This document shows, piece by piece, positions 52,596 to 53,617 of a DNA stretch of 64,000 bases. A program made the translations under genes and the position numbers. Origin of the DNA: a virus; IMG/VR virus record IMGVR_UViG_3300001533_002283, positions 1 to 64,000 of that record. The stretch is one strand, 5' to 3'. Each line of letters opens with the position of its first letter. The stretch's first letter is position 1. Under the pieces are notes generated by a model, which saw only the letters and a list, made by a program, of their open reading frames with translations, was not told the DNA's origin and searched no databases.

Positions 52596-53013
52596 GGGGA
52601 ATAGTCAGATTTTCATGCTGGCGGCGAATCACATCAATGGGCACCTTTCTCGCCCGCTTCTCATTATTTAAAATACATTGGTCAAGACTTGTTTGAAAGA
52701 CAACCCAAGTTTTCTGATAGCCATGCGCGGTTGCCAAACGATTCCAAATCAAGCGGTTTTTACGATTATAGTTAGTTTGGTCAATGAGTATGTTCTTCCT
52801 TAGAATCATGAAATAACCAACCATATTTTCCAAAGTTTGGAATACATGATGATTCCGATCTTGATTGGATTCATCTCCGGTCATGCATAACCGCATTGTA
52901 TCCGCATTTAAATAGATATAGTCGGGATTCTGTTCTAGGAATTTTCGCGCCCAAGTGGATTTTCCACAGCCAGCGGGGCCGATGGTCAGAACAATTTGTT
53001 TGTTTTTATTCAT
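52561..53013 (-). CDS. P-loop polynucleotide kinase (AAA_33/PNK kinase domain)
   Basis: GPAGCGKST, D.TN...R, NEKR.RKVP.DVI. Confidence 0.82.
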   Translation of the reverse strand: MNKNKQIVLTIGPAGCGKSTWARKFLEQNPDYIYLNADTMRLCMTGDESNQDRNHHVFQTLENMVGYFMILRKNILIDQTNYNRKNRLIWNRLATAHGYQKTWVVFQTSLDQCILNNEKRARKVPIDVIRRQHENLTIPLDEGGEILYVC

Positions 53014-53617
53014 TTTTCTTATCTTTTTTGTTCAATACATACTCATTATTATCAATCCATTCAATTATCGGCTTCTGTCCAACCGTCTTTTTGTCCCAAA
53101 CAAACCATGCATAAACCATCATGCCAGTATTGTATTTTCCATCTTCTCGTAGTTTTTCTCCTAACATTGGATAGCGAGTGAATACATAAACTCTTGATAG
53201 AGGGAAGTTTGGGTCAGAATAAATGTTATCAAACCTTTTTTGCCATGAAGGTAGGATGGCGGGAGAAGAAACGCGAAATAATCAGTTAAGGTTTTTGCCT
53301 TTTGGATGAATTCGTAAGCGAGGGAGAATGGAGGATTGGTAATAATTGAATCATATTTCTCTGTTTCGTCAAGGAAATTGTGACCTGAACTAATGTCCTT
53401 TCCCACCACATTCTCCGAGAACTCTTTCAAAACTTTTACAATCGCCCCGTCGCCGCAACTTGGCTCAAGGATTGTTCCCGTTAGCTCTCTCTCTCTCTCT
53501 CTCTCTCTCTCTCTCTAAAAATTGGCGAGTAATTGAATAGGGTGTTTCATAAAAATCAGATTTTTTATGTTTGCCCTCGGAATTATTACAAGAGAAGTTT
53601 TTACCTTTAGTTTGCAT
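53006..53617 (-). pseudogene. Frameshifted N6-adenine DNA methyltransferase (possibly phase-variable)
   Basis: Three segments: MQTKG..SDFYETP | LEPSCGDG..TNPPFS | FDNIY..YAWFVW; breaks at the (AG)16 tract and at an A6 run (53236-53241). Confidence 0.8.
53485..53516. repeat. (CT)16/(AG)16 dinucleotide microsatellite
   Basis: 16 perfect units counted. Confidence 0.95.

Follow-up and report, generated by a model that had tools for sequence, protein, structure and literature searches.

When a phage methylase gene is found broken at two simple repeats, is it a reversible switch, a gene in decay, a message read by recoding or a product of misassembly? The question was raised by a locus in the first 64 kb (the window, i.e., the whole stretch of DNA analysed here) of an IMG/VR virus record of 172,181 bp (linear, CheckV-complete, with a GC content of ~40% across the phage genome), for which the initial annotation had proposed that slippage in an AG repeat switches an adenine methyltransferase. 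The reading that we consider probable is that the repeat is a slippage-prone contingency tract in the clade to which this gene belongs, and that the allele in the window is currently dead.

Layout of a doubly interrupted gene

All parts of the locus lie on the minus strand. The RNA ligase gene (53617..54903, minus strand; 428 aa) matched PF09414 RNA_ligase at 31.5 bits (cutoff of 27) as well as the OB domain of PHA02142, with a partial match to TIGR02306. Its TAA stop shares one base with the ATG of the methylase gene (TAATG, at 53617), from which segment 1 (53517..53617, minus strand) runs for 33 codons plus positions one and two of a Leu codon whose last base, A, begins the tract. The start-codon frame opens with MQTKGKNFSCNN...KKSDFYETPYSITRQFL before the tract, and segment 1 as a whole encodes the motif X helix in the form of a conserved N-terminal sequence, KGKNFSCNN..KKSDFYETPYSITRQF(L); it aligns at 93% with the N-termini of intact relatives. 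The perfect (AG)16 tract that follows (32 bases; 53485-53516, minus strand) sits between codon 34 and motif I, and the start codon is thereby out of frame with the body of the enzyme. On three-frame translation the start-codon frame reads ...SDFYETPYSITRQFL, then (ER)5, then an out-of-frame tail, ANGNNP, with a TGA stop (tail and stop at 53465..53484, minus strand, the stop itself at 53465-53467), while the third frame meets an immediate stop past the tract at AGC TAA; both off frames stop within 1-7 codons of the tract. The enzyme body begins with segment 2 in the +1 frame (53236..53484, minus strand; 83 codons), which leaves the tract as LTGTILEPSCGDG...NPPF...LHGKK and carries motif I (ILEPSCGDG) and motif IV (NPPF). 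Translation places the start codon in this LTGTILEPSCGDG frame at 14 or 17 AG units and generally at n = 2 mod 3.

Segment 2 ends in LHGKK at a second break, a run of six adenines (A6; 53236-53241, minus strand) with one base deleted (-1) at a position where relatives read HGKKRFDNIY. Past A6 the window frame continues for 24 unrelated codons to a stop at 53161-53163; with A7 instead of A6, the segment 2 frame would continue into RFDNIY...YAWFVW...KKNE. This last part is segment 3 (53006..53235, minus strand; 75 codons and a stop, FDNIY...YVFTRYPMLGEKLREDGKYNTGMMVYAWFVW...KKNE), which lies in the start-codon frame together with segment 1, and the restored protein has 204 aa. Its stop overlaps (ATGAATAA) the ATG of a polynucleotide-kinase-like P-loop kinase gene (52561..53013, minus strand; 150 aa; PF13671 AAA_33, 87 bits; bacterial Pnkp kinase region TIGR04075, E = 1.4e-15). 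Promoter and terminator scans of 52300-55300 gave background levels only. The sequence agrees with the initial annotation on the start codon in the TAATG overlap, the 14- or 17-unit rule for entering the NPPF frame, the second break that needs A7, the frame shared by the first and last segments, a restored product of ~204 aa and the overlap with the kinase start; its account of a start-codon frame that ends in an ER repeat and then stops was right in outline, the actual end being slightly longer by the ANGNNP tail. Four open reading frames downstream of the kinase, a 188-aa product (50662-51228, minus strand) had a weak precomputed match to the dual-specificity phosphatase family PF00782 and none in NCBIfam; it is a candidate for the phosphatase that would complete the ligase-kinase RNA-repair set.

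The length of the tract is far beyond chance. (AG)16 is the sole dinucleotide repeat of more than 5 units in the 172-kb genome, where the next longest has 5 units, and the maximum in 100 shuffles was 4-7 units. The A6 run at 53236-53241 is ordinary by comparison, being one among 393 A6/T6 runs in the genome. Both breaks could in principle be artefacts of assembly or sequencing in an allele that is truly in frame (17 or 14 AG units, and A7). Such a miscount is suggested by the low coverage (only ~10x), by the stutter of 16-unit dinucleotide repeats in PCR-made libraries, and by the Logan contigs of two public runs, in which the tract is not resolved: in both runs the contigs that enter it from the two flanks break off after ~29 bases because it exceeds the k = 31 word size, and the count of 16 AG units comes from one assembly at ~10x depth. 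Against it, the stretch 52400-54400 recurs without differences, A6 included, at ~10x depth in both sets of contigs (these were built separately, though the runs possibly share one sample, possibly the source sample itself); the A6 break is no assembly slip of the IMG/VR record. The phage was not found in public runs X3 and X5. A miscount would further need two separate errors in one 600-bp gene within a region otherwise free of indel noise, and long contigs of other studies also carry out-of-frame tract alleles, all of which makes this explanation very unlikely.

Programmed recoding would preserve a full-length enzyme in spite of both breaks, with ribosomes shifting by -2/+1 at the AG tract and by -1 at the A run, or with RNA polymerase slipping at these sites. 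The codons GAG and AGA can re-pair perfectly after a 2-base slip, and a -1 slip on AAA AAA would yield the conserved KKRFDNIY. However, the needed frame lacks a canonical X XXY YYZ heptamer (the A AAA AAG that is present lies in the wrong frame), and RNA folds downstream of the two sites are no more stable than those of shuffled sequences (z = -0.44 and +1.0). For want of a suitable in-frame heptamer and of downstream structure, and given that relatives encode the protein in a single frame and that two low-efficiency events in series would leave almost no product, we give recoding almost no credence.

A compact adenine methylase and its neighbors

The three pieces can be aligned consecutively along intact proteins (190-206 aa) that other uncultured phages encode in a single frame, and in these alignments the breaks map exactly onto the AG tract and the A run. 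Segment 2 is 82-83% identical to the closest intact relatives (P0001 and P0002). Matches to phrog_799, labelled 'DNA methyltransferase', were found for segment 2 (E = 3e-26) and segment 3 (E = 5e-8), and the motif order X (FYETP), I (EPSCGDG), IV (NPPF) is invariant or nearly so in 62 relatives. The N6_Mtase family PF02384 matched one relative (L003) at 27.2 bits against a cutoff of 20.4; the window fragment alone scored 15.3 bits, below that cutoff, and no NCBIfam model matched the methylase. When a profile of the 62 members was compared with solved structures, the best matches were the adenine DNA methylases PacII and M.TaqI (E = 8e-5 to 2e-3). An AF2 model of the closest intact relative (pLDDT of 87, pTM of 0.84) was best matched in Foldseek by M.BseCI, PacII, HsdM, M.TaqI and CamA (probability 1.0, TM-score of ~0.5-0.57 over the query). 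By these motifs, family matches and modelled fold, the gene appears to encode a compact gamma-class N6-adenine methylase of ~200 aa, here in fragments, which most probably acts on DNA, as the initial annotation had it in naming an adenine methyltransferase.

Like M.TaqI, M.BseCI and PacII (PDB 2adm, 7qw5 and 7vru), the phage enzyme has a Rossmann fold, the X-I-IV motif order and NPPF/NPPY. It differs from them in size (~195 aa) and in having no separate target-recognition domain, the place of which is taken by a compact, conserved C-terminal part of ~75 aa; sequence identity to the three is 14-19%. The linker encoded by the tract falls at a helix end or in a loop before beta 1 of the model, and since linker length varies within the family, extra Glu-Arg pairs should be tolerated.

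The substrate could instead be RNA (e.g., tRNA m6A or m2G), with the enzyme serving the ligase-kinase RNA-repair module and the switch tuning repair. The methylase directly follows the RNA ligase gene in the window and in the contigs L024 and L014-L016; Foldseek matches also include the small RNA methylases PH1948, TrmM and the MTS family; and the NPPF motif occurs in m2G and m6A RNA enzymes too. Yet the best matches by both fold and sequence are DNA adenine methylases, the PHROG family is labelled as acting on DNA, and there are relatives that have no RNA ligase in the vicinity and adjoin, instead, an EcoRI-like endonuclease, DNA polymerase III, DNA ligase or other DNA methylases, so that an RNA substrate appears improbable. 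One close relative lies between a PHP protein and DNA polymerase III alpha, another among other methylases, and yet another beside DNA ligase and Thy1. Occurrence in such differing contexts suggests that the methylase is mobile cargo and no fixed part of the repair module. The RNA-repair operon of the initial annotation is accordingly real as to its flanks, the ligase and the Pnkp-like kinase, but the methylase, with relatives that sit elsewhere, is not an integral member of it. Among IMG/VR phages with an RNA ligase 41% identical to that of the window, no methylase or kinase adjoins the ligase, and synteny therefore yielded no closer genome.

Several features of these neighborhoods may be noted in their own right. 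Directly upstream of one methylase homologue, and overlapping it, is an EcoRI-like endonuclease domain (L004:2253-2891; PF02963, E = 3e-17); this pair is possibly a phage-borne restriction-modification system, which would be suggestive of the family's target class. GAATTC was considered as a clue to the methylase target on account of this neighbor and rejected: its count in the phage genome (21 observed vs 69 expected) says nothing on the target because many other palindromes are avoided more strongly. Genome-wide, GGCGCC occurs 0 times (28.8 expected), CCGCGG once (54.5), ATCGAT 0 times (20.7) and GTCGAC 0 times (13.5), and there are only 4 GTAC sites in 172 kb; this avoidance suggests a phage under heavy restriction pressure. 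Elsewhere, on a viral contig, a methylase homologue is immediately followed by an archaeal-type S-adenosylmethionine synthetase (L003:3467-4414; PF01941, E = 4.5e-70). On another phage contig (L014:4001-7900), P0001, the closest tract-less relative, is followed by an N6_N4 methylase and, ~3 kb on, by a Dam-family methylase, giving three methylases within 4 kb.

The tract among relatives and the state of the window allele

In the nearest sub-clade (other freshwater phages, 75-80% nucleotide identity to the window), the linker after RQFL starts with E-R-E, and the AG tract that encodes it is placed at the same codon as in the window. Tract length and reading frame vary. Eight AG units, in frame, were found in L017-L022 (six places shown of the 18 contigs with P0002) and in L056; L057 (1109-1684) is in frame with 10 units, its downstream flank being one base shorter, and the length class that is in frame thus differs among lineages. 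Out-of-frame alleles have 10 units in L026, 12 in L054 (a 105.7-kb contig), 8 in L023 (a 150-kb contig) and 7 in L055, to which the window allele adds one of 16 units with the A6 break besides. The gene's nearest relative, L024 (1600-1650; a contig of JGI 3300051216), has the same ligase-methylase-kinase order and 7 AG units in frame with the body; its N-terminus is cut off by a deletion (A6 to A5) in the KRKK codons. Interrupted linkers (EREGER, EREKE) occur in some relatives, and more distant relatives, at 34 IMG/VR loci with 38-69% identity, have different linkers, in which there is neither a repeat nor a break. Out-of-frame alleles at the tract made up 5/9 of the tract-bearing alleles whose DNA was seen and 0/34 of the tract-less ones (one-sided Fisher test, about 1e-4, for sets that were found differently and are not phylogenetically independent, the off alleles having been found partly through gene-fragment searches, which is an ascertainment bias).

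Across lake samples with the P0002-type phage (ENA GROS21), alleles of 8 and of 10 units are both present. The closest on/off pairs were drawn from different metagenomes and not from one population. L055 (off) and L056 (on) are 99.5% identical: over 632 nt they are separated by 3 substitutions and by a single AG unit, although L055 is covered only 1.4x and might owe its missing unit to PCR stutter or to an error in the reads. In a second pair, L026 (off, with 10 units) and L017 (on, with 8), identity is 96.9%. Past the tract, the body is open to its normal stop in L023, L026, L054 and L055, in which the window with its A6 break differs from them. Pairwise dN/dS over the body was 0.04-0.08, pairs of two broken alleles included (window vs L054, 0.06; window vs L024, dN of 0.044 and dS of 0.94). 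Ratios this low even between broken alleles point to recent breaks and to strong purifying selection on the gene through nearly the whole period since the alleles diverged.

No near-identical copy of the window phage was found in the collections searched. Megablast of the region against 50,697 GenBank phages gave no match, nor did IMG/VR scans for the exact pattern of tract and flanks with the window's own record excluded, and the 27 loci returned by a metagenome-contig scan with CAATTTTT(AG)7 were all unrelated repeats with other flanks.

A repeat at the same site, length changes among close relatives, all three frames and intact bodies together are the usual mark of a contingency locus when genomes are compared. 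The initial annotation had taken the lack of a tract in relatives as a point that would speak against a switch; the comparison that it called for found a tract at the same site, of variable length and in both on and off alleles. Within the window itself, the repeat lies inside an open reading frame, has a unit length that is no multiple of 3 and forms a tract far longer than the background repeats of the genome. On and off lengths among near-identical genomes were seen in relatives only, and an off allele that is otherwise intact is represented by L023, L026, L054 and L055 and not by the window, owing to A6.

The same alleles have to be weighed against a plain pseudogene, i.e., dispensable cargo being lost, in which AG units would have grown by neutral slippage from a GAGAGAGAG proto-repeat with no selected switching, the tract being simply the place where such genes break most easily. 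This explanation would account for two independent breaks in the window allele, for the location of the longest tract (16 units) in that same doubly broken allele, for the break at a different A run in L024, as fits a gene that is often lost, and for genomic contexts that differ among phages as expected of accessory cargo. It fits poorly with four off alleles that have intact bodies and with the low dN/dS even of broken against broken alleles, for which each break would have to be very recent. The tract has also been held at one position although synonymous sites are saturated (dS of about 1-3), and a perfect repeat that evolves neutrally is expected to gain interruptions, as some relatives indeed have. 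On this evidence we regard simple pseudogene decay with no selected switching as unlikely.

Under the contingency-tract reading, which we prefer, the orphan methylase of ~200 aa (phrog_799) would have been transferred horizontally into the early region of the 172-kb phage, between RNA ligase and kinase. The surface linker of the sub-clade (from the motif X helix to the first beta strand, consensus E-R-E), coded by GAGAGAGAG, would then have grown into an (AG)n microsatellite, in which polymerase slippage would alter n in whole units. Since the body is in frame only at n = 2 mod 3 with this flank, the tract would act as a mutational on/off site, and switching would presumably be fast and reversible within phage populations. 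The benefit may be a hedge between hosts whose restriction is blocked by methylation and hosts that attack methylated DNA through methylation-dependent nucleases; as the methylase is phage-encoded, the DNA most affected would probably be the phage's own.

Because of the second break at A6, no single tract change can switch on the allele in the window and two slippage events would be needed, and as it stands it is predicted to make no enzyme. A phage switch operated by the tract, as the initial annotation had inferred, is therefore plausible from the tracts of relatives, but the window copy itself is not switchable by one change. The A run may be a second, slower switch, as in the work on phage T2 discussed below, or the allele may be an off allele in decay, and L024 fits both; most likely the window holds an off allele that has taken a first step towards decay. 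More tentatively, and with some doubt on our part, the methylase and its AG tract might together form a self-switching cassette that moves among unrelated freshwater phages, with the tract kept hypermutable by selection. If so, each burst would mix methylated and unmethylated progeny, the A-run break of the window would be a slower second lock that keeps the gene off where methylated DNA is attacked, and the locus would be an environment-wide sign of epigenetic bet-hedging in phages beyond pathogens and the gut.

Comparison with known systems

Repeat-driven switching of DNA methylases is textbook biology in bacterial pathogens. The phage version has been claimed only recently, for short homopolymers in laboratory coliphages, and no description of a dinucleotide-repeat switch in a phage methylase was found in the literature searched. 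Here, a long dinucleotide repeat keeps its position but changes its length among uncultured freshwater phages of one clade, which suggests that phages of natural waters, too, take a gamble on whether to methylate their own DNA. The intact 195-aa relative and the repeat variants provide a concrete and easily testable gene. For annotation, the locus means that 'broken' phage methylases should not be written off as pseudogenes or assembly errors before their relatives have been checked.

The methylases of bacterial phasevarions (Type III mod and Type I hsdM/hsdS; PMC5909438, PMC7383803) resemble the phage gene in that the reading frame of an N6-adenine methylase has, in its 5' part, a repeat whose unit length cannot be divided by 3, tract length sets the frame, and on and off alleles occur among close relatives. 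The phage enzyme differs in being no Type III or Type I subunit and in having no partner restriction or specificity gene (no res or hsd); no regulon is implied for it, and its host is environmental and not a host-adapted pathogen. The phasevarion parallel drawn in the initial annotation thus does not carry over to an orphan phage enzyme of ~200 aa that lies between an RNA ligase and a kinase.

Among phages, polyG tracts in receptor-binding genes of Fletchervirus (Campylobacter phages), as they are cited in bioRxiv 10.1101/2025.10.21.683753, are hypermutable repeats inside reading frames that give rise to phenotypic sub-populations, as proposed here. As described in that citing source, the Fletchervirus repeat is a G homopolymer and concerns a receptor-binding protein and host recognition, whereas the window has an AG repeat and concerns DNA modification.

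The closest parallel in kind is offered by homopolymers of at least 6 bases, which have been proposed as widespread contingency loci of phages (Gomez, Barrick, Waters, bioRxiv 10.1101/2025.10.21.683753). According to the same work, A-run repeats in the T2 gene agt, the product of which modifies DNA, revert at a rate about 1000-fold above that of a point mutant and allow T2 to evade TgvAB at one time and McrA/BC at another, and the sole methylase mentioned there is that of phage BBP-1, the gene of which has a polyG tract (bioRxiv 10.1101/2025.10.21.683753). The homopolymer loci of T2 agt and T4 rIIA resemble the window in having a repeat within the gene and reversible frameshifts by slippage, and T2 agt further in that a DNA-modifying enzyme has on and off states favored by different host defenses. 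They differ in that the main tract of the window is a 32-base dinucleotide repeat and not a homopolymer of 6-9 bases, that the enzyme is a methylase, and that the case for the window is made by comparing metagenomic sequences alone. The A6/A7 break, on the other hand, is exactly of the T2 agt/T4 rIIA type. The mechanism is known from the phase-variable methylases of bacteria and from the contingency loci of phages, and the locus described here adds to them the case of a dinucleotide tract in a phage.
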